A DNA stretch of 32,122 bases from a virus (Duplodnaviria > Caudoviricetes), in IMG/VR virus record IMGVR_UViG_3300028925_012725, positions 1 to 32,122 of that record; one strand, 5' to 3'. Shown here piece after piece: positions 4,167 through 25,907 of the stretch. The stretch's first letter is position 1; each line of letters starts with the position of its first letter. The notes under the pieces are model-generated. The model was given only the letters and a program-made list of their open reading frames with translations. It searched no databases and was not told the origin of the DNA. The translations under genes and the position numbers were made by a program.

Positions 4167-4562
4167 TTAATCTGATTCGGAACTGTCTGTGGGCCATGGG
4201 TATGCTTGGCTGAGGGTCTGAGGTTGGACCCCATATTTTTCGGCCAGCATTAAGGCGTTTACAGCTACATGATATAAATGGTCCAGGCCCGATTCCGGGT
4301 CTGCCCTCTCCCCGTTTTCACTTGCCATTAAATGGCGATTCATTGAATCTATAATTGAAAGCCTGGCGTATCTGGTGTTACTATCACCCTTCCACTCCCC
4401 CCTAGTGTATTTGCCCTCTCCCATCATCAAAGTGCGGCAGATTCCTTCCATTCCGTTTGGAAATTCGTACATATAGTTTAAGGCTGGTTTGTCTTCAAGC
4501 CAATGGCGAGGTCTTGGGGTGTCGGCAACGACGGCCAAATTTTCACTGCTGTTGTTTCCCAT
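4167..4562 (-). CDS. dATP/dGTP diphosphohydrolase (DUF5664-like, MazG-like fold)
   Basis: DKP...GEGKY...W...DSMNRHL...GE.ADPESGLDHLYHVAVNALML matches the family pattern; AAAGAGGA SD upstream; last gene of the purZ-datZ operon. Confidence 0.75.
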   Translation of the reverse strand: MGNNSSENLAVVADTPRPRHWLEDKPALNYMYEFPNGMEGICRTLMMGEGKYTRGEWKGDSNTRYARLSIIDSMNRHLMASENGERADPESGLDHLYHVAVNALMLAEKYGVQPQTLSQAYPWPTDSSESD

Positions 4563-4879
4563 TGTGTTTTTTCCTCTTTATTCATATATATTACATGTTG
4601 GTAATGTTTACCTGCTATGAGGTAAACCTTTTCTATACTATAAACCAGAATCCAGGGATTCCCTCCGGCTTTAATCCTCTGCTTGAACCACAGTATTTGT
4701 GATTGTCTTAAGCCCCTACTGCTGCAGACTTTAAGTTCAATGTGACCCGATATACCATCTATGCAAAAATCTACGTCTGGTATGCCTGGGCTCGTGGCGT
4801 GGGATTCGACAGACGAAGCATGGCCGCCTACCTTTCTAATAGCGGTTACTGCCCATTTTCGAAATTGAGACTCATTCAA
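4478..4879 (-). CDS. VRR-NUC / PD-(D/E)xK nuclease (putative resolvase)
   Basis: N-terminal ESQF, GIPD, IELK and L..SQ..W motifs; ATGA overlap with datZ. Confidence 0.8.
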   Translation of the reverse strand: MNESQFRKWAVTAIRKVGGHASSVESHATSPGIPDVDFCIDGISGHIELKVCSSRGLRQSQILWFKQRIKAGGNPWILVYSIEKVYLIAGKHYQHVIYMNKEEKTQWETTAVKIWPSLPTPQDLAIGLKTNQP

Positions 4880-5385
4880 AATACAAAGTCTGCCTGTTTA
4901 ATTTCTTCTACTACGTCCCGTATTTGGCCCAATTCATCGATGCTAAAAGTGGCTTCGACATAAGCTTCCATCTTTTCACCTATATCAGCTTCAACGGTAA
5001 GAGCATGCATACCAACTGCATTTTCTTCCATAAATGACATTGCTTCAATATAATCCGAGACTTTAACTATCCTTGTAACCCACTCCAGACCCGAACATTG
5101 ATATGGAACATTTATGCCGTTATTGTTCAGGTCCACTCCTTGTGCCTTGGCCCTGATTTTAGTGGGGGTAGGAATGTCCCCGGTGATTACTTCGTCTAAA
5201 TCGTGGACCAAGCCAGCCAACATTACGGTCTTAACATCATCTTCATCATAACCCATTTCAATGGCGATTCTTCTTGCTATCATGGCCACGTTGAACGAGT
5301 GTTCAGCTATGCTCTGGTTCTTGATAGTATGGACTATATGAAACCGCTTGACGTGTTGGGCCCTAAGCATATCGTTAATTCTCAC
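4876..5385 (-). CDS. datZ: HD-domain dATP triphosphohydrolase DatZ
   Basis: VKRFH, QSIAEHSF, VHDLDEVITGDIPTPTK and VKVSDYIEA motifs; immediately downstream of purZ. Confidence 0.88.
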   Translation of the reverse strand: MRINDMLRAQHVKRFHIVHTIKNQSIAEHSFNVAMIARRIAIEMGYDEDDVKTVMLAGLVHDLDEVITGDIPTPTKIRAKAQGVDLNNNGINVPYQCSGLEWVTRIVKVSDYIEAMSFMEENAVGMHALTVEADIGEKMEAYVEATFSIDELGQIRDVVEEIKQADFVF

Positions 5386-6409
5386 AGGTTATATCTCCCT
5401 CTGCAGCACCCCACCCGGTGTAGGTAACTTGTGACCCGGAAGGTCCAAAGGTGTCTAGGTCCGAGTTTGTCTGGACTACTATTTCCTCAGCTAAATCGGG
5501 GTCGTAATTACAGAAATTCAGGAATATATCAGTGGGCTGGCAGGCCATGATAGCTTCTCGCATTTGGACCCGGCTGAATGTAAACACCCTTCTCTCTCTT
5601 CCGGTTACAGTGGTAGTCTCCGGCACTTCGCCTAGCTCCAGCCACGATGTCTCCTCTTGGTCCTCATAGTGTCCGCCACTAAAACCATCCGGTGTGTTCC
5701 CAACTCTTATGGGGTGGACCCTAGCTGTCCCAATCACTTTATCGGCCCAGCTGAAAGGAATAGCACAATCTGACAAAAACCGGGTGGGGGTGCAATCACG
5801 GCTGGTGCAGTATGGCCAGAATCCAGAATTGACACCTAGACTATATCCTTGAGCACCCTCTAGGAGTATCCTATGGGCCTTATACATGATGTTAATCCAT
5901 TCAGCGTGGGTAACTACATACTTAGCAAATCCGGTTTTAGCTAGAGCGGATATGGCCAGTGGGCTGTCCTCTTTTTGGCGCATTATCTTTTGGACCATCG
6001 CAGCTGCGCTTCCTTGCATTGTAGAAGCAATCCCACTAAGCATAGCTCGCTCGGTCTCTGCGTGTTTTTCAGATAGTACGACAGATGCTTCGTGTATTAT
6101 CAGACGTTTGCCCTTCATTATGTCTTTAGATTCGGTTAGCTCTTTGGTAAGGCGGTCCAAGCTGAATACTGAGCCTGGACCCAGGCCTATAGTCTTAACA
6201 GAGTCAGCCACAAAACCGTTTGGCAGGACTTTATGAATCCAAGTGCGCCCGGTGTCGTCTATGAATGTATGGCCAGCGTTTGGCATATTGGCGTTTATCA
6301 CCACATCATAGCCTCCCCTTTTGGCCAAATATCCGGCTATTAAGCCTTTCCCGGTGGAGCCAAATTGAAGGTCCACTATTACATCTACTTTTTTATCCAT
6401 CATCATCAT
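5375..6409 (-). CDS. purZ: N6-succino-2-amino-2'-deoxyadenylate synthase PurZ
   Basis: PurA fold with DLQFGSTGKG (Ser replacing the PurA catalytic Asp of GDEGKG), NAGHT, EGAQG, PYCTSR, TTVTGRERRV and C-terminal FLNFCNY in place of PurA TKLD; 344 aa. Confidence 0.95.
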   Translation of the reverse strand: MMMMDKKVDVIVDLQFGSTGKGLIAGYLAKRGGYDVVINANMPNAGHTFIDDTGRTWIHKVLPNGFVADSVKTIGLGPGSVFSLDRLTKELTESKDIMKGKRLIIHEASVVLSEKHAETERAMLSGIASTMQGSAAAMVQKIMRQKEDSPLAISALAKTGFAKYVVTHAEWINIMYKAHRILLEGAQGYSLGVNSGFWPYCTSRDCTPTRFLSDCAIPFSWADKVIGTARVHPIRVGNTPDGFSGGHYEDQEETSWLELGEVPETTTVTGRERRVFTFSRVQMREAIMACQPTDIFLNFCNYDPDLAEEIVVQTNSDLDTFGPSGSQVTYTGWGAAEGDITCEN

Positions 6410-8690
6410 TATCTTCCCTTAGGTTCATGTTATGCAATTGCTTCATTGACTCTATCAGATTTTCTAATAGAGGCACTTCCACCGCAGGAACTCTTCCTCC
6501 ACCCGGTAGTCTTTTCTTTGTGGGCCTGAAACCCATTTTCTTCAGTTCTTTGAAAAAAATCATCATGTGGTCAGAATGTCTATTTCGCTTTGAACACCAT
6601 TCACTGTAATCTTCATATAAATCCTTCTTTTGGACTTTAGTTGGCCATCCTTCTGTGTCGTCAAGACAGGGGGCTTTCATTGACTCGTTTATGCAAAGCA
6701 TGGAAATCCAATTTGCTGTTGTCTCTGAAGACATCGACATATCTCTCTGGTCTTGCAATGCTTCCGTATGTGGGGCTATTCTTAAATCGCTGGTTATTTT
6801 CCTATTTAGGAAGAAATTAAGAACTTTCCCGTGTCCACCTTGGTCAAAGAAGGTTTTTATATTCTTAAAATAAGGTATGTTGCCCTTTTTATTGGGACTA
6901 ACATCGGTTACATACCAACGCCTGGAATCTGTTCCAGCGGGGATAACCCACTTAGAATTAGATGCTATAAACATATGTATCATATTTCGGAAGCTCTGGG
7001 CATCTACGCCTTTGCGCTCACAAACAAGAAACCTCTCGGTCACTAAGCCTTTGAGTTTGCCTGATGTCTTTTTATTACCACCCCAAGTGATCTCGTCTGC
7101 AAATACCAAGACGGCATCCATCATAAATGCATTGAAATTGCTGGTTAGGTGGGCGTCATCAATGAGGTGGATATAGTGGCTCCCAAGTAGCTCACCTATT
7201 GTGTTGGCAAGTGTACCCTTTCCTGTTCCTTCCCCTCCCCTCATTACAATTGCAGTGCCTTTGGGGTCCTGTGGGTTTTGGAACATATCGGCTATCCAGT
7301 CTAATACCCACTTACTTTCATCTTCATTCCCATTACATATTATGTCCTTGATGTGGTCAATGAAAACATCGCAATCCCCCGGTTCAGGCTTTGCTGAGAA
7401 TCCTTCCCAAGTGTTATAATATCCACCGGGTGCTCCCTCTGGAAACAGGCCGATTCCGTTTGGGTAAGTTCGCCTGGCTTCACTCGCCAGCCATATCTTA
7501 GCCACTGATATCTTTTTCCCGGTCTCCTCGTCTATTACCACCCTATCGTTCTCTAGGTATGCCTCAAACGAAGACTTGTCCATTAAGTCATAACGGGCCA
7601 TATGAGCTTCGGCCGCATGAGTCTTCTTCCTTTCCCGGATGATTTTAGCTTTGCCACCAACTACAGTAAAACCATATTCAGCGTTGACTCGCTCAATTTC
7701 CCCGTGAATTCTACCCATGTGGACGTCATCGGGTTCGGGCTTCCACCCACTCTCATTTGACATGTAAAACAGGGAGCCCATTCTGACAGTACCAAAATCG
7801 CTGAAACCATCCCAGCGTATGCGACATTCGTTTTTTTCATATCTGTAGCCCTGTGATGACCAGTCATCCCACAACTCAAAACCGTCCTCGTCCGGATATT
7901 GAGATTTGATGGCCATACCAACCCGTATCCACTCATCATAACTAGCATCATCGATAGCAATAGATTCCATCATCCGGGTGATCTGGTCGAGGGGAACTTT
8001 CTTTTCGAAATCATCAACGTTGACATTCTCATTGCCCCGGCCGTTCCCGGTGATTTCGCCCCTTGGTTTTGACCAAGAGATTCCCATCTTTTCCACCACC
8101 CAATGGGGAATACTGGGTAGTGGTCCTGATGTCACCCATTTGTAGCCAATTCCGTTTATCATTGAAGGCCAGGCTACAATATGTCCCTTGCAAGCTGTCT
8201 TGCTGCCACCTCTAGTGTCGATGGCAGGGCCGATTTTGTTAGTACTATTAGTAGCGTTTTCCTGCCACCTAAATAGATAATGAAACCCCCCATTTGGGGT
8301 GGCTTGGCAGGGGCCTATTGGAAGCTCGCTGTGCTTGGCTTCAAGGTCCTTCAAGGTTTGAACTCCGTCCTCTTCACCGTGGCGGTCCACATCTACTACA
8401 AACACACCATTCTCACGCCCGGTGGCGATTCCAATGTTATATCCAGCAAATTTGCCCTTTGTGGGGTGGAACCACTTCTCAATCACCCGGTGACTATTGG
8501 AGGCAGTAGAGTAGTTTACCCCTTTATTGGCTTCTGGCAGCTTCTTTTCATTTTTGGTTAAGGGGACTACATAAAAACCTGCTTTGATGTATTCCAAAGC
8601 TGCCATGTAGAGTTTCTGTTCATAGGACTCCAAATTGGAAATATCTTCTAGACTTCTCAGGTCCAGGACTGTGTGTTCAGTTGCTTCCAC
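6393..8690 (-). CDS. Primase-polymerase (AEP) / PriCT / SF3-type helicase fusion
   Basis: YNIGIATG, VVDVD, TPNGGFHYLF (Prim-Pol); YDEWIRVGMAI...WDDWS (PriCT-2); Walker A GGEGTGKG and Walker B VFADE. Start placed at GTG 8690, which has a GGGAGAG SD and overlaps the polymerase stop. Confidence 0.9.
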   Translation of the reverse strand: MEATEHTVLDLRSLEDISNLESYEQKLYMAALEYIKAGFYVVPLTKNEKKLPEANKGVNYSTASNSHRVIEKWFHPTKGKFAGYNIGIATGRENGVFVVDVDRHGEEDGVQTLKDLEAKHSELPIGPCQATPNGGFHYLFRWQENATNSTNKIGPAIDTRGGSKTACKGHIVAWPSMINGIGYKWVTSGPLPSIPHWVVEKMGISWSKPRGEITGNGRGNENVNVDDFEKKVPLDQITRMMESIAIDDASYDEWIRVGMAIKSQYPDEDGFELWDDWSSQGYRYEKNECRIRWDGFSDFGTVRMGSLFYMSNESGWKPEPDDVHMGRIHGEIERVNAEYGFTVVGGKAKIIRERKKTHAAEAHMARYDLMDKSSFEAYLENDRVVIDEETGKKISVAKIWLASEARRTYPNGIGLFPEGAPGGYYNTWEGFSAKPEPGDCDVFIDHIKDIICNGNEDESKWVLDWIADMFQNPQDPKGTAIVMRGGEGTGKGTLANTIGELLGSHYIHLIDDAHLTSNFNAFMMDAVLVFADEITWGGNKKTSGKLKGLVTERFLVCERKGVDAQSFRNMIHMFIASNSKWVIPAGTDSRRWYVTDVSPNKKGNIPYFKNIKTFFDQGGHGKVLNFFLNRKITSDLRIAPHTEALQDQRDMSMSSETTANWISMLCINESMKAPCLDDTEGWPTKVQKKDLYEDYSEWCSKRNRHSDHMMIFFKELKKMGFRPTKKRLPGGGRVPAVEVPLLENLIESMKQLHNMNLREDNDDDG

Positions 8691-10528
8691 TATTTCTCTC
8701 CCTGTAAGGCTTCCCACCAATTTTTACCTGCCCCATTCAAGTCCAATACTAGTGGAACTCTGAGACGTGGGCGTTCTATTGCTTCTTTGACTCTAGCCCA
8801 AACTGGCTGCCAATCTTCCGGCATACACATTGAGTAAGAATCATGAGTGTTTAAAATAAGATGGCCGTCATCACCCATAGCTTCCTCGGCCAATTTCCAG
8901 TTTTCTTTGTTTAGGTCAGCTGCCGTTGATTGTATTAAAAGACCAGAGGCTTTGTATGATTTCCAACCATGAGGGAATCTAAGCTTGCGGCCTTTATAAT
9001 TCATAACGTAGCCCCAATTTTCAGCTCGCCTTTGCATTTTTTGGGCCAGCTCTTTCACACCGGGCACTCGACTATGGTATCGCTGGATAACTTCTAGTGC
9101 TTCCGCCCCGGCTTTTTTATAGGTTATGGTCTTTCCGTCTGAAGACCTAAAAGATTGCCACTCCCAGTCCATCCCCATTTCGTCTGCTATCGCCCCGTTC
9201 CCTGAATTAAAAATCATCGATAAGTTCAATTGCTTAGCATTGGCCTGGCCATTATAGGTAGCGTTCCGGGGCAGGTTGGCCAGATCACCCACAAACTGAT
9301 GCAAGTCTGTGCCCGGTTCACGTTCATATTCATCGTTGATGACTGGGTTGTTTATTAAATGGGCAAATACCCGTACCTCAAACGAACTCATATCCCCATC
9401 AACCCATACCATTCCTTCGTCTGGTAAGAAACAAGGCTTAACAATAGCTGCTACTGTTTTGTTGCGGGATGGTATTTGCTGCATTGCCGGATTTTGAATC
9501 GACAGCCGCCCTGTGCCAGTGCCCCCGGTTTCGCCTTTACTTTGGTTTATGGTGGGATAGACCCTATCGCCAACACTATGGCCCAACACGTGTCCTCTGA
9601 TGAAGGTGTCTCTAGTTTTGATTAAGGACCTAATTGAAAGAATCCTCGCTGCTGCTGGGTGTGTCATTTGGCGTAGGGCATCAGAACCAATAGATGGATT
9701 GCCACTATTGGTCTCCAACAAAAATGTACCATCGTTTGCTGCCCATTGCTTGGTTCCACGAAGTGTCGTCATCTTGGGTTCAAATAGCTTTCGGATTTGG
9801 ACAGATGAATTGGCATTGATCTCATGTCCTGCAATTTTATTTAGAGCTTTCTGGTCTTCCAGTATAAGAGGTGTGAGTTTATCAGCCGCTTCTTCTGCGT
9901 ACCCGGAATCAATCCTAATGCCCCTTTCCATAGTCTTGATAAAGGTGGGTATTAGAGACCGTTCAAATTCATGAATTTCACCTAGATTTTGGGTTTTGAT
10001 CTCTTTCTCTTGCCACTGCCAAAGGCGCATTGTTAGGTTTGTGTCTTTCTTTGCATATGGGGCGACAACACTTACAGGAGCCCGGCTGATGTTTGGCATT
10101 TGGACCTTTCGAGTGGCCCGGCCCCCAAATAAAAAAGCCAACTCCTCGTAAATTTCTATTTCCTTCCTTTCATTGAGATACTTTATCGCAAGATCATCCA
10201 AGCGGTAAGATACCAAATGCTCGTCAATGAGAGCAGCCCTAATGACAGTGTCATCGAGCCTGGAGATAGGTAGCATAAGTCCGGCAGAACGTGACATCCT
10301 GTAATCAAAGCCGATGTTATGGCCCACGATGATGCCACGATAATTGCCGAGTTTTTCATTTAGATATTCTATGATTTGGGGTTGGACTCGCAGGTCCCAA
10401 TAGAAATCCTGCAGGTTAGGGAGGGTAATGGAGACGCCAAAGGCTTTGTCCACCCCTTGTAAAAGTCCAGTGGTCTCGGTATCAAGTGCGATAACCGGGT
10501 ACTGGCTGAGATCTGGTAAATTGAACAT
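8690..10528 (-). CDS. dpoZ: Family A DNA polymerase with 3'-5' exonuclease, DpoZ-like
   Basis: ExoI LDTETTG, ExoII HNIGFD, ExoIII YAKKD; TGRLS; motif A DMSSFEVR, motif B AKQLNLSMIF, motif C THDS; no 5'-3' exonuclease domain; linked to purZ. Confidence 0.88.
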   Translation of the reverse strand: MFNLPDLSQYPVIALDTETTGLLQGVDKAFGVSITLPNLQDFYWDLRVQPQIIEYLNEKLGNYRGIIVGHNIGFDYRMSRSAGLMLPISRLDDTVIRAALIDEHLVSYRLDDLAIKYLNERKEIEIYEELAFLFGGRATRKVQMPNISRAPVSVVAPYAKKDTNLTMRLWQWQEKEIKTQNLGEIHEFERSLIPTFIKTMERGIRIDSGYAEEAADKLTPLILEDQKALNKIAGHEINANSSVQIRKLFEPKMTTLRGTKQWAANDGTFLLETNSGNPSIGSDALRQMTHPAAARILSIRSLIKTRDTFIRGHVLGHSVGDRVYPTINQSKGETGGTGTGRLSIQNPAMQQIPSRNKTVAAIVKPCFLPDEGMVWVDGDMSSFEVRVFAHLINNPVINDEYEREPGTDLHQFVGDLANLPRNATYNGQANAKQLNLSMIFNSGNGAIADEMGMDWEWQSFRSSDGKTITYKKAGAEALEVIQRYHSRVPGVKELAQKMQRRAENWGYVMNYKGRKLRFPHGWKSYKASGLLIQSTAADLNKENWKLAEEAMGDDGHLILNTHDSYSMCMPEDWQPVWARVKEAIERPRLRVPLVLDLNGAGKNWWEALQGEK

Positions 10529-17880: not shown

Positions 17881-18310
17881 TTCTGGTCACGTTTAAAACA
17901 TCTTTTGTAGATCTGGTCATCCTGCAAACCCTGTTCGTGCTCTGAGTCACGTTATAAACTTCTTTTGTGCGTTTGGTCATCCTGCAAACCCTGTTCGTGT
18001 TCTGAGTCACGTCTTAAACGTCTTTCGTAGATTTAGTCACCCTGCAAACCCTGTTCGTAGATTTGGTCACGTTTAAGACGTCTTTTGTGCTTTAAGTCAT
18101 CTTGCAAACCCTTTTTGTGTTCTGGGTCACCTTGCAAACCCTTTTTGTGTTCTGGGTCACCTTGCATACGTCTTTTGTGCGTTTGGTCATGTCTTAAACG
18201 TCTTTTGTGCTCTGAGTCATCTGCTAAACCCTTTTTGTGCGTCCAGTCATCCGACAAACCCTTTTTGTGCGTCCAGTCATCCGACAAACCCCTTTCATGT
18301 TCTGAGTCAC
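17881..18310. repeat. Degenerate 30-bp tandem repeat array (14 full units plus a partial)
   Basis: GTCAY recurs at an exact 30-bp period from 17886 to 18306; approximate consensus GTCAY-N5-AAACN-YYTTTYGT-N7; no indels. Confidence 0.95.
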
Positions 18311-18410
18311 GCTGGTCCGGGCAGTCCGGTGTGCGGCCTGGGCAGGTGGACCGTCTACAAACCCCGGAAGACGCGGGATGGTCCCCTAGGGACTACTGGT
18401 CCATATTTTC

Positions 18411-18443
18411 TTTTTTTTTTTTAAAAATACCCCCCCCCCCCCC
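18411..18443. repeat. Adjacent homopolymers T12-A5-TA-C14
   Basis: T run 18411-18422 and C run 18430-18443, read directly. Confidence 0.9.
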
Positions 18444-18712
18444 ACCGTAATCGACGCTTTTTTCGCTGCCGATATTGGTGGTACTATTTCCCCCGGACCG
18501 GGTGTGGTCTCTCTTGGCCACAGCCCCCGTCTTCCGCGTATTGTAGGTGGTCCATCATATAGCTCTCCAAGTAGGACCGTCCTATCTCCCAGGCTTGGTC
18601 TGTGATTCAGAATTATGATAGGTTCTGCCTATTGTTGTCCACTGAAGCGTGGAACATTACCGTGAAACGCCTAACACATTGAAGCAAACATTTAACACAT
18701 GATTCAGAGCAG

Positions 18713-21950: not shown

Positions 21951-23636
21951 ATGGCAACTGTCAACGATAAAGTATTGGACGCAATAACGGGGCACTCAGT
22001 TGATTTGACGCGTTTGGAGGCATCTCTGCAAGCAGACGTATTGAAGGAGCTTAAGGTGCTTGAAAAAGACCTTATTAAAAAGCTCAAGAATGCTAACCTT
22101 GAAGCCAACTCTATTCCGCTCAAGCGCAAACGAATGCAAGCTCTATTAGCGCAAACCAAGAAGACTATCAAAGAGGCTTATGTCAAGATAGACGCAAAAG
22201 AAGCCACCAACATGGCTAGCGTGGCCGGGATTGCTGAAACCCAAGCGGTGGCAGCTATAAACGGGTCTATTAAAGCAAAAGTCCTGAGTGTTGGAATGTC
22301 AGACCAGATGTTGGGGTCCATTGCTTCAAATACCCTTATACAAGGTGCTCCTAGCCGGGAATGGTGGAGTGGCCAAGCAACCTCTCTTCAGAGCGGATTT
22401 AAGAATATCATACGGCAATCTATGCTAGCAGGTGAAACCACCAGCAACATAGTAAACTTAGTGAGAGGGACCGAGGCCCTCAGGTTTAAAGATGGCCTGA
22501 TGCAAACTGCTAGAAATAAAGCAGAAGCTCTTGTTAGAACGTCCGTCCAAGTGGTGGCCAACGAAGCCAGGATTGGGACATATGAAAGCAACCGTGACGT
22601 GGTAAAATATATTGAGTGGGTATCAACCCTGGACTCTAGGACTAGCTCTACCTGCCAAGTATTGGACGGCAAAAAGTGGGCTGTGGGTACGTTCAAGCCT
22701 ATAGGCCCCAATAGTCAGAATTTTCCCGGTCCCACAGCTCATTGGAATTGCCGCTCAACCCAAGTCCCAGTTCTAAAATCTTGGAAAGAGCTTGGCTCCA
22801 AGCGCAAATTTGATGAAATACCAGCTTCCACCCGGTCTAGCATGGACGGTCAAGTAAGCTCGAAAATAAGTTACGAAGATTGGCTTAAATCCAAGGGCCA
22901 GGAATTCCAAAAGGAAGTCCTGGGGCCGGGAAAATTCGAACTTTGGAAAGCCGGGAAAATTGGATTTAAAGATCTGACCAACTCAGCTGGAAACCCCCTC
23001 ACTGTTAGCCAACTCCAATTGAAGTATGATGATAAGCCCAAGCCCAAAAAGCCAGCCAAAATTAAAATATTAAATGAAAAAGGTACAACGGCTAGTAATG
23101 CAGGAATTCCCGAATATATTGAACTGATAAGTAAAGTCCAAGGTGCATCCGGCCGTGTATCTTTAGAAAATGAGTTATTAACTAGAAGTATGATTCAAGC
23201 GACATCTAGGTACACTGGTGGCACTTATAAAGACATTAACGACCACCTCAGGCATGGGCAAAGTTTACGTGAGTTTGATTTGGGGGGCATTAAAAGCATG
23301 GACGATATGTTTGCAGTTCTTCCCCGCACACAAAGACCCATGAAGCTATTCAGGTCCAGGCAGTCCGATAAAATGCATAAAATAGGCGATGTTTTAACGG
23401 ATAAGGGTTTTGGCTCAACTTCTACTAATGCCACGAACGACACATTTGGATTGTATGATTATGAAATTACCATCCCCACGGGGTCCAACGTTGGCTTTAT
23501 TGCGAGCTCGTCCCAATTCAAGGGGGAATTAGAGGTTTTATTGAACAGGGGGTACAGGATGACTGTAACCAAGATTACCAAGAATGGTAGGGGCTCACTG
23601 GGTAAGACGTACCACACAACATTAGAACTAGAATAG
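21951..23636 (+). CDS. MuF / SPP1 gp7-like minor head protein with C-terminal ADP-ribosyltransferase domain
   Basis: ALVRT, WVSTLDSRTS..C..LDG and P.AHWNCRS (MuF); Lys/Pro linker; YT...Y..IN..LR, LFRS, GFGSTS and GELEVLL (R-S-E ART). Confidence 0.88.
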   Translation: MATVNDKVLDAITGHSVDLTRLEASLQADVLKELKVLEKDLIKKLKNANLEANSIPLKRKRMQALLAQTKKTIKEAYVKIDAKEATNMASVAGIAETQAVAAINGSIKAKVLSVGMSDQMLGSIASNTLIQGAPSREWWSGQATSLQSGFKNIIRQSMLAGETTSNIVNLVRGTEALRFKDGLMQTARNKAEALVRTSVQVVANEARIGTYESNRDVVKYIEWVSTLDSRTSSTCQVLDGKKWAVGTFKPIGPNSQNFPGPTAHWNCRSTQVPVLKSWKELGSKRKFDEIPASTRSSMDGQVSSKISYEDWLKSKGQEFQKEVLGPGKFELWKAGKIGFKDLTNSAGNPLTVSQLQLKYDDKPKPKKPAKIKILNEKGTTASNAGIPEYIELISKVQGASGRVSLENELLTRSMIQATSRYTGGTYKDINDHLRHGQSLREFDLGGIKSMDDMFAVLPRTQRPMKLFRSRQSDKMHKIGDVLTDKGFGSTSTNATNDTFGLYDYEITIPTGSNVGFIASSSQFKGELEVLLNRGYRMTVTKITKNGRGSLGKTYHTTLELE

Positions 23637-23684
23637 TATTTTATCGGCCCCGGTGGGGCACAACTAAAGAACCGGAGGTTCAAA

Positions 23685-24428
23685 ATGGCTTTACAAGCTA
23701 CAGTAACAGAAATAGATAGTGTGCCTGAGGCACTTCGTTCAGCTTATGTCGAAAAAGACGGTGCGTTCCATTTAGATGTGGATGGCATGGTAGACAAATC
23801 AAAACTGGATGATTTTCGCTCCAACAACGTTAAATTGCTGAAGGACATTGAGACCCTCCAAGGCAAATATAAAGACGTGGACGTGGACCAATATGCCGCT
23901 TTCATTAAAGCTCAAACTGACGGCAGTGACCAGAAATTACTTGATGAAGGCAAAGTCGAAGAATTGCTAGAAGAGCGCACCAAAAGAATGAGGGAAGCTC
24001 ACAACAGTGAAATTGAAAAGGTCCAGGGCGAAAACGACACCCACAGACGGCAACTTGAGGGTTTGATGATAGATGCCTCTGTCCGTGATAGCGCAACCAA
24101 GCAGGGTGTGGCTTCCACAGCAATGGATGACGTGATACTTAGGGCCAAGACAGTCTTTCAATTGAAAAACGGCCAAGCCACACCCTTTGATGTAAATGGG
24201 GACGTAATTTACGGGTCTGGAACTTCGGACCCCATGTCTGTGGACCAGTGGGTAAAAGGTTTAACAGGCTCAGCACCCCACCTATTCACCCCTTCAAGGG
24301 GAGCAGGTGGAAATCACGACAACCGAGGGGGCAGTGGTGGAAACCAAGTAACTAGAGCGGAATTTGACTCTATGGACCAATACTCTCGGTCAGACTTCGC
24401 CAAAAAAGGCGGAAAAGTGGTTGACTAG
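23685..24428 (+). CDS. Capsid scaffolding protein
   Basis: GGAGG SD; coiled-coil; APHLF..S.G.G tail; upstream of the capsid gene. Confidence 0.8.
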   Translation: MALQATVTEIDSVPEALRSAYVEKDGAFHLDVDGMVDKSKLDDFRSNNVKLLKDIETLQGKYKDVDVDQYAAFIKAQTDGSDQKLLDEGKVEELLEERTKRMREAHNSEIEKVQGENDTHRRQLEGLMIDASVRDSATKQGVASTAMDDVILRAKTVFQLKNGQATPFDVNGDVIYGSGTSDPMSVDQWVKGLTGSAPHLFTPSRGAGGNHDNRGGSGGNQVTRAEFDSMDQYSRSDFAKKGGKVVD

Positions 24429-24450
24429 CAATGCCGTTTTATGTTATAAT
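24421..24450 (+). promoter_or_regulatory. Sigma70-type promoter for the major capsid gene
   Basis: TTGACT-18 bp-TATAAT with extended -10 TG. Confidence 0.85.
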
Positions 24451-24456
24451 GTTCGT

Positions 24457-24561
24457 AACAGTAGCGGAGTTACTGACCCCTTAAAGATTCCAGTGGAATC
24501 TAAGACTATAGAACGAGGGCGCTACTGTCCTCGAAATTTAAACTTTTGAGGAATTATCCCC
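24457..24561 (+). promoter_or_regulatory. Structured 5' leader of capsid mRNA with alternative pairings
   Basis: Complementary segments 24458-66/24520-28, 24459-65/24469-75, 24485-92/24494-501, 24514-19/24528-33 and 24529-36/24544-51. Confidence 0.6.
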
Positions 24562-25710
24562 ATGGCCAACGTCCTAACAGACCTAGCAGCCGACATCTAT
24601 AAAGCAGCCGATACAGTCGGCCGTGAGCTAGTCGGTTTCATCCCAGCAGCAACCATCAACGCAGACAGCTCAGAGCGAGTTGCTAAAAATGGCGTTATTC
24701 GTGCTGCTTACACTCGTGCAGCTACTGCTGGCGACATCACAGAAGCAATGACTATTCCGGAAGGAACAGATCAAACTGTCGATAACAAGACCATGACAAT
24801 CGGCAAAGCTCGCTCTGTCCAGATTCCATGGACTGGTGAAGACATGAAGCATGTTGGCAATGGTGCTGGCTTTGAAACCGTTTATGGTGATCAAGTGGCC
24901 CAGGCCATGCGCACATTGACAAACGAAATGGAAACAGACCTAGGCGTCGCAGCCTATCAGGGCGCATCTCGTGCCATTGGTACTGCTGGCACTACCCCGT
25001 TCGCTTCCAACTTCAATCTTGTAGCATCTGCCCGTCAAATCATCGCTGATAACGGTGGCGTAACTAACGATGGCCGTTTAAGTCTTGTTATGAACAGCTC
25101 AGCTGGCACTTTAATGCGCAACTTAGCAAGCTTGAACCAAGTTAACACATCTGGTGGTGACACTTTATTGCGTCAAGGAGTGTTATTGGACCTTCAAGGC
25201 GTTTCAATGCGTGAGTCAGGTCAGGTAACGTCCCACACCAAAGGTGGTGGTACTAGCTATCTAGTGAATAACGCTGCAACTGAAGCAGCAGGCCAGACAG
25301 TAATTACCCTTGATACAGGCTCTGGCACTGTAATTGCTGGCGACTGCGTGACTTTTGCTGGTGATACAAACATCTACGTGGTTCAAACTGCCCTTGCTGG
25401 TGGTGATGTTGTATTGAATGCTCCAGGCTTAATCTCAGCAGCAGCTAATAACGCAGCAATGACAGTTGGTAATAATTTTGCCGCCAACGTGATGTTCCAT
25501 CAGTCCGCTCTTGAACTAGCAGTTCGCGCCCCAGCAGTACCCGGTGGTGACGATGCGGCCATTGATGCTATGATGGTGCAGGACCCACATTCCGGCCTCG
25601 TTTTTGAGGTTCGCGTTTACAAAGGTTATCGTAAGCAGATGATTGAAGTAGCCGCTACTTGGGGTGTTAAAGCCTGGAAGTCGGAAAATATGGCAATTCT
25701 CCTAGGGTAA
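24562..25710 (+). CDS. Major capsid protein (P22 coat-like, HK97 fold)
   Basis: 382 aa; follows the scaffold; own promoter and terminator; ends ...WGVKAWKSENMAILLG. Confidence 0.9.
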   Translation: MANVLTDLAADIYKAADTVGRELVGFIPAATINADSSERVAKNGVIRAAYTRAATAGDITEAMTIPEGTDQTVDNKTMTIGKARSVQIPWTGEDMKHVGNGAGFETVYGDQVAQAMRTLTNEMETDLGVAAYQGASRAIGTAGTTPFASNFNLVASARQIIADNGGVTNDGRLSLVMNSSAGTLMRNLASLNQVNTSGGDTLLRQGVLLDLQGVSMRESGQVTSHTKGGGTSYLVNNAATEAAGQTVITLDTGSGTVIAGDCVTFAGDTNIYVVQTALAGGDVVLNAPGLISAAANNAAMTVGNNFAANVMFHQSALELAVRAPAVPGGDDAAIDAMMVQDPHSGLVFEVRVYKGYRKQMIEVAATWGVKAWKSENMAILLG

Positions 25711-25772: not shown

Positions 25773-25907
25773 ATGGAAGATTCAAAGAAAACTGCTACTA
25801 AAAAGGCAAACCCCCAAACAACCAAAATGGAGCGTGACGGTAATACCGCAGACGTCCATAAAGACGAAGTTGCTAATTATATTAAAAGTGGTTGGGTGGC
25901 TAAGTAA
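25773..25907 (+). CDS. Small protein (44 aa) not in the ORF track
   Basis: AGGAG SD; MEDSKKTATKKANPQTTKMERDGNTADVHKDEVANYIKSGWVAK; stop lies 1 nt before the next ATG. Confidence 0.75.
   Translation: MEDSKKTATKKANPQTTKMERDGNTADVHKDEVANYIKSGWVAK

Follow-up and report, generated by a model that had tools for sequence, protein, structure and literature searches.

The window analysed here is a stretch of 32,122 nucleotides, the complete 32-kb record IMGVR_UViG_3300028925_012725 of a marine siphophage, and is estimated to represent 76% of the genome. According to gene annotation, its head–tail block lies on one arm, and PurZ, DatZ, and DNA polymerase lie on the other. The leader of the capsid message is located between the genes for the head scaffolding protein and the major capsid protein (Table 1). 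Positions 21951–23636 encode a MuF head morphogenesis protein with a fused ADP-ribosyltransferase exoenzyme domain (Pfam E = 4e-17); matches to the fusion cover 555 residues in the genome record G002 and only about 355 residues in G001, G003, and G004. The minus strand of positions 4167–10528 carries PurZ, DatZ, a dATP/dGTP pyrophosphohydrolase-like gene, and DNA polymerase, and the phage is likely to have a 2-aminoadenine (Z) genome. PurZ is also present in G002. A link between the leader and the Z-genome was considered and rejected, because the complete genome G001 bears the leader and lacks PurZ. Between the divergent early and late arms is a tandem array with a period of 30/60 bases (17881–18311, about 13 copies of 30), followed by long runs of T and C near 18410–18445; the array is possibly an origin or packaging region.

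Table 1 Features of the scaffold and capsid region of the window.
Feature	Positions	Strand	Basis and remarks
Scaffold-start hairpin 1, 5-bp stem, C-GGU-G triloop	23647–23659	+	Hairpin-pair scan
Scaffold-start hairpin 2, 5-bp stem, C-GGA-G triloop; holds scaffold SD GGAGG (23674–23678)	23669–23681	+	Hairpin-pair scan
Head scaffolding protein, phrog_206, 247 aa; proposed binder	23685–24428	+	Annotation; AlphaFold model
Codons for scaffold helix 1 (residues 38–63), N48/L51/L52 motif; candidate RNA-reading segment	23796–23873	+	AlphaFold model; correlation
Sigma70-type promoter TTGACT-18-TATAAT, extended −10; predicted start near 24457	24421–24450	+	Score 11/12
Hairpin A, 7 bp, C-GGA-G triloop; SD-open fold only	24459–24475	+	Folding, alignment, covariation
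Linker CCCUU; can pair with GAGGG (24515–24519), the core of the long closed-fold helix	24478–24482	+	Folding, swap test
Hairpin B, 7 bp, C-AGU-G triloop; in both folds	24485–24501	+	Folding, covariation
Hairpin C; in the open fold its purine run sequesters the anti-SD	24514–24533	+	Folding, consensus
Anti-SD (24528–24536) pairing with SD strand (24544–24552) in the closed fold	24528–24552	+	Pair probability, swap test
Major capsid protein, phrog_283, 382 aa	24562–25710	+	Annotation

The dedicated host-type promoter that a preliminary description had assigned to the capsid message is borne out by its score, and the −35 box overlaps the last codons of the scaffold gene. The leader segments named in that description are each found at their coordinates. 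Folding of the leader beats chance (z = −3.31, with none of 200 shuffles as good). Two mutually exclusive folds are predicted for nucleotides 24456–24590: a closed fold that hides the SD, with an energy of −34.3 kcal/mol, and an open fold that frees it, with an energy of −31.5 kcal/mol. The closed fold makes up approximately 95% of the ensemble. In this fold, the SD is buried by pairing with the anti-SD, as had been proposed, with a helix probability of 0.98, and nucleotides 24520–24528 from the region of hairpin C invade hairpin A. The 9-bp helix P1 formed by the invasion has a probability of 0.95, and the hairpins specific to the open fold have probabilities of 0.05 and 0.02. The P1 pairing of the preliminary description is thus present in the window; however, its ACAGUAGCG/CGCUACUGU register is restricted to one clade, occurring in 10 of the first 18 of the 27 aligned leaders. 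The hairpins of the open fold are also present and provide an SD-open alternative, but hairpin C has 7–8 base pairs instead of the six described. The sequence reported as a dyad compatible with both folds is hairpin B; its stem occurs in both, but as RNA it has seven base pairs and an AGU triloop, the eighth pair having a probability of 0.0. A possible pseudoknot had been suggested, and no stable one is indicated; the complementarity between the loops of hairpins A and C may rather serve as a toehold.

Capsid proteins served as queries in seven scans, which provided 372 loci, including repeats of one contig, with 182 distinct upstream sequences, most of which have a short gap after the scaffold stop codon. 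The leader described here, located behind a sigma70-type promoter, was found in 30 of the 182 upstream sequences, a set selected by eye; alignment A1 contains 27 of these leaders, since the near-duplicates L011, L293, and L018 were omitted. The leader-bearing phages form one clade on both the scaffold tree, which is a quick tree, and the capsid tree (17 rows, support 99). A promoter-like site scoring at least 9/12 is present in all 27 aligned leaders, and hairpin A begins 4–9 nucleotides after the −10 box in 25 of them. Hairpins A and B occur in all 30 leaders. The preliminary description missed that the two share a C-N-G-N-G triloop: 59 of the 60 hairpins have a C-G pair closing an N-G-N loop, of which only the central G is kept throughout.

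The consensus calculated by RNAalifold consists of hairpins A, B, and C, with both sides changed in 9 of 15 pairs. For A and B together, 96.4% of cells are paired and both sides are changed in 10 of 13 pairs, a level reached by none of 500 shuffles; controls with a slid register give 20–46% pairing. The stems vary while the frame of the loop is fixed, which fits a ligand of the hairpins rather than a DNA operator. Covariance model R1 retrieved only copies of the capsid leader from 43 sources, with the next scores at E = 0.45 or worse. Searching viral contigs with a DNA pattern for hairpin C was abandoned as a way of finding the element, since it returned mostly terminators and chance matches, with a capsid match at only 8 of 119 loci. 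Public RNA data contributed one run with one 235-nucleotide contig, which lies inside the capsid gene and is uninformative.

The closed fold is conserved as well. In swap tests, the sequences were pooled into 11 groups to allow for kinship, and the p values quoted here ignore kinship between groups. The anti-SD fits its own ribosome-binding site better than those of other groups in 8 of the 11 groups (p = 0.008), and hairpin A together with the linker fits its own downstream region in nine (p = 1e-5), while an unrelated control gave p = 0.46. When tested separately, hairpin A yielded p = 0.0098 versus 0.80 for hairpin B. With the register fixed, pairing of the start of the hairpin C region with the loop and 3′ arm of hairpin A is seen in 61 of 66 cells, compared with 41 of 66 for the hairpin B control. 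The third loop base of hairpin A alternates within this pairing, forming U-A in five groups and A-U in three, and the central G of the loop pairs in the closed fold in 9 of 11 groups. Bases of the anti-SD change together with bases around the SD across leaders. Covariation among capsid leaders, whose absence had been named beforehand as evidence against the element, is present: the open-fold hairpins covary, and the closed fold passes the swap tests.

Most leaders folded singly melt hairpin A and bury the SD, with a median probability of 0.00 for hairpin A and 0.98 for hairpin B. Hairpin A is conserved despite being nearly absent at equilibrium. In groups other than that of the window, the pairing that melts it involves the loop and the 3′ arm; leaders of the window clade have an A-G mismatch in this loop register and are invaded at the 5′ arm. 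The 9-bp P1 is a local version of the helix that invades hairpin A. Little closed fold is formed in groups L224 and L020, and the SD-hiding structure is weak in two to three of the 11 groups.

The predicted order of folding differs from the equilibrium. When the chain of the window leader is grown in silico, hairpin A forms first, a closed-type P1 appears briefly at 24527–24531, the open fold prevails over the interval 24535–24547, and the closed fold takes over at 24551. A nascent open and a full-length closed state are predicted for the relatives too, in which hairpin A has a median probability of 0.76 before the SD is transcribed. The median cost of opening the ribosome-binding site is 8.15 kcal/mol in the leaders, versus 5.55 kcal/mol in leader-less capsid starts (n = 101). 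Holding hairpin A, hairpin B, and the linker lowers the median from 8.0 to 4.7 kcal/mol, which is within the range of the leader-less starts, and the drop exceeds 1 kcal/mol in 22 of 27 leaders. Forcing hairpin A alone provides no gain in the equilibrium accessibility of the SD (median unpaired 0.13 free and 0.07 forced), and forcing hairpin B changes nothing in any of the 27 leaders. Because formation of hairpin A mostly precedes transcription of the SD, a binder would probably capture the nascent open fold by masking the toehold in the loop of hairpin A. Holding the open fold costs 14–15 kcal/mol in the L013 group, so that the model would need kinetic trapping.

Scanning the window for pairs of such hairpins identified two, against 0.04 expected: one in the capsid leader and the other at 23647–23681, over the translation start of the scaffold gene. 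Hairpin 2 of the latter pair is the predicted repression site. Among 132 distinct scaffold starts evaluated by a strict rule, both hairpins are present in 31, a single one in 31, and neither in 70; by comparison, the two hairpins together are absent from all 152 leader-less capsid starts and all 130 downstream gene starts that served as controls. In eight genome records, including the complete genome G001, 12 of 13 hairpin pairs are located at a scaffold start or in a capsid leader, and in G001 the pairs occur at these two places only. The loop spacings of the hairpin pairs compared are 20–26 and 18–26 nucleotides. The scaffold hairpin was scored as none in 4 of 19 leader-bearing phages, of which one is a mis-called start and three have degenerate hairpins. 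The scaffold start thus has a conserved structure over it, as would be expected for scaffold autoregulation of the P22 type. Phages that lack the capsid leader commonly have the scaffold-start site, which is therefore probably the older use of the operator.

The type of triloop is tracked across relatives by a motif in helix 1 of the scaffolding protein, although the correlation is confounded by descent. Scaffolds with the helix-1 type LL are associated with NGN loops in 39 of 57 cases and never with GGAN, whereas GGAN loops accompany the type HR in 9 of 12 cases (5 of 104 in the control). The type ER is found with GNGAN loops in three of eight cases, with two NGN exceptions. Loop type changes five times on the scaffold tree and seven times on the capsid tree, a weak difference based on 75 rows in FastTree, with L060, L477, L456, and the rows scored as none omitted. 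Helix 1 is part of a net acidic coiled coil. Fold searches with the model of the whole scaffold gave no match (best Foldseek E 2.1; best VIA-align Z 6.0, on the coiled coil), and an Atlas search provided weak leads only. The window and the complete genome G001 share only the genes from portal to tape measure, and a phage-coded binder should therefore be a product of this structural block, although it is possible that a shared gene lies outside the 76%-complete window.

In a separate clade of phages, the hairpins at the scaffold start are of the form C-GGAY-G, and a different capsid leader contains two of similar form; GNGAN loops characterize a third set of phages. The second leader family, found upstream of the capsid genes of L043, L059, L063, L064, L074, L467, L483, L499 (Salicola phage CGphi29), and L504 (E. 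coli phage 673R7), contains two C-(Y)GGAY-G hairpins; a tract of pyrimidines farther downstream is complementary to the first of them and often precedes a terminator-like hairpin. It has no match in Rfam. Cultured Salicola phage CGphi29 carries GGAY hairpins at both its scaffold start and its capsid leader. Vibrio phage MAR10 (L496) has, within positions 2100–2307 and at a distance upstream of its capsid gene, a site resembling a promoter and a pair of C-GGG-G triloop hairpins spaced by 22 nucleotides. In Acinetobacter phage Effie (L497), the scaffold SD and the capsid leader each have a single triloop hairpin. In L278, L320, L425, and L460, an unrelated open reading frame of about 240 residues, presumably a homing endonuclease, separates the scaffold and capsid genes. 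Positions 25773–25907 of the window encode an unannotated basic protein of 44 residues with a conserved C-terminal domain and a weak match to phrog_1514; it follows the capsid gene in 84 of 152 loci.

The leader is a conserved, uncatalogued RNA element with two mutually exclusive predicted folds, one hiding and the other freeing the SD. Comparison of related sequences supports the promoter, hairpins A, B, and C, the anti-SD:SD helix, the helix that invades hairpin A, and the hairpin pair on the scaffold SD. The earlier proposal of an undescribed cis-regulatory RNA is upheld by the lack of an Rfam match, the two exclusive conserved folds, and the dedicated promoter. A protein, a ligand, or read-through from the scaffold gene had been offered as its trigger; of these, a protein is favored, because the scaffold start carries this hairpin pair as well. 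It is somewhat probable that the unassembled scaffolding protein binds both hairpin pairs, represses its own synthesis, and holds the capsid leader open. Nascent RNA would form hairpins A, B, and C first, with the SD free, and the completed RNA would relax to the closed fold, using the loop of hairpin A as a toehold; in most groups, this loop and the 3′ arm would pair with the hairpin C region. A scaffold dimer, the dimerization being assumed, would cap both loops, block the toehold, and trap the open fold for ribosomes, whereas binding at the scaffold start would bury the SD of the scaffold gene. Recruitment of the scaffold into proheads by coat protein would reverse both effects. Capsid output would thus follow spare scaffold, and the circuit may restore a fixed ratio of coat to scaffold in a clade that has acquired a separate promoter for the capsid gene. 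Balancing capsid against scaffold appears a likelier function than the timing of capsid translation suggested earlier. A broader generalization can be put forward only tentatively: a single hairpin-pair operator, read by scaffold helix 1, may switch scaffold synthesis off and, through strand exchange, capsid synthesis on, with loop and helix co-evolving as an orthogonal code (NGN, GGAY, and GNGAN) across the phage family.

The comparative data reveal a shared site and not the identity of its binder, and the same switch and operator could serve a host RNA-binding protein, the coat protein, or the 44-residue basic protein, which is an unlikely reading but one to be taken seriously. Among 26 leader-bearing loci, 24 have the gene for the 44-residue protein after the capsid gene, and G001 shares this protein; however, no such gene occupies the position in L020, L386, or 17 of the 57 triloop loci, and 4 of the 10 GGAY loci do have one. 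Coat protein as the binder would generate positive feedback and starve the coat of scaffold. CsrA/RsmA is a dimeric protein that occupies two loop sites and can repress or activate, as the proposed binder would, and the GGA loops of the second clade resemble its sites. However, it needs GGA loops, which are a minority here, most loops being AGU, AGA, GGU, AGC, and others, and no phage-coded copy of CsrA was found in five records. Against all of these binders, the loop type follows the scaffold motif. A purely RNA-based timer, in which the nascent leader is open and refolds itself shut after one burst of translation per message, with hairpin A as a kinetic trap or 5′ stabilizer and a protein acting only at the scaffold start, is improbable. 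It agrees with the predicted nascent and full-length states in the window and its relatives, with the position of hairpin A just past the −10 box, and with the closed-fold pairing of the central G of its loop, but it leaves two things unexplained: the retention of the shared loop by hairpin B, a stem common to both folds, and the agreement of the loops with the scaffold site, in type and in spacing, in two clades.

Repression of both genes by one protein that binds hairpin B in the closed fold, or drives this fold, is very unlikely. Hairpin B is retained in the closed fold, and the polarity of the parallel GGAY leader may differ; nevertheless, the default state is already closed, forcing hairpin B alters nothing, and the scaffold site is often a pair at the A–B spacing, which requires hairpin A and hence the open fold. 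The remaining triggers, a metabolite such as a nucleotide of the 2-aminoadenine pathway or read-through from the scaffold gene, have still less probability. PurZ and DatZ are encoded in the window, but the leader has no conserved junction core, its invariant alignment columns being stem, loop, and SD bases; the conserved bases either belong to the loops and their closing pairs or pair in the other fold, and leader-bearing G001 has no PurZ match. Read-through would be permitted in the window, where no plus-strand terminator is listed between the scaffold gene and the promoter; however, longer transcripts stay SD-closed (0.77–0.97), and the L287 group has a hairpin with a U-run between the scaffold gene and the promoter. 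That the two dyads just past the promoter are double-stranded DNA operators for a transcription factor is hardly credible, since the stems vary freely with compensatory changes, 16 of 110 stem pairs in the 11 groups are G-U in the sense strand (in stems picked allowing G-U), and the scaffold copy is positioned on the SD. Control by the scaffolding protein is retained as the preferred reading.

The matching of coat to scaffold synthesis in tailed phages is known mainly from the autoregulation of P22. The present element offers a precise candidate operator, together with a naturally occurring version that would activate and a helix that may recognize it; related versions exist in cultured relatives, and orthogonal loop–helix pairs could serve as compact translational ON/OFF parts. 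The window and 14 related loci have no match to Rfam 15 families at the gathering threshold, and the best E-value for the leader, 0.37, belongs to a snoRNA on the other strand. A literature search, with most subscription papers outside its range, found no description of the element. The candidate RNA DNAVirus_7287 (Fremin et al. 2023) occurs upstream of P22_CoatProtein genes 14 times and is the only entry of the table searched that precedes a P22-type coat gene. It shares the position before a coat gene with the capsid leader; however, all 48 of its sequences are host-associated (44 of them human) and it has a predicted terminator. It is set apart on the basis of its table description, and overlap of this or another of the 8,495 models with the present motif is possible. 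GP20-a (RF02991), GP20-b (RF03003), and six further candidate RNAs are reported upstream of GP20 genes (PMC10690425). They are likewise structured RNAs in front of a phage gene family, and genes in the scaffold position of two cultured relatives are annotated as GP20; however, section 2.5 of that paper assigns them no binder and describes no copy on a capsid message, and Rfam has no match to the leader. If the proposed mechanism is true, it would provide a likely meaning for these orphan motifs catalogued upstream of scaffold genes.

The closest parallels are with two regulatory systems of phages. The scaffolding protein gp8 of P22 has been proposed to regulate its own translation, with its N-terminal part implicated (bioRxiv 10.1101/2022.12.13.520362). 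The likeness lies in a scaffold that would autoregulate its translation. The difference is that the capsid message carries a second copy of a defined hairpin pair, placed within a switch and predicted to have the opposite effect; the literature search retrieved no report of gp8 activating coat translation in P22. In phage Mu, according to the account of mom control in PMC6483171, Com binds a hairpin beside an inhibitory structure and exposes the start signals of mom. In the capsid leader, too, a phage protein on a hairpin would expose start signals, and both an SD-hiding structure and an exclusive alternative with a recurrent loop motif are present. However, Com as characterized there is a dedicated zinc finger reading a six-base loop, whereas the leader combines two triloops with a long-range exchange of strands and would be bound by a structural protein that serves assembly. 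A search for the Com zinc finger (PF10122) gave no match in five records, and the control genomes were also silent. The element would work like the Com/mom switch of Mu joined to the scaffold autoregulation of P22.
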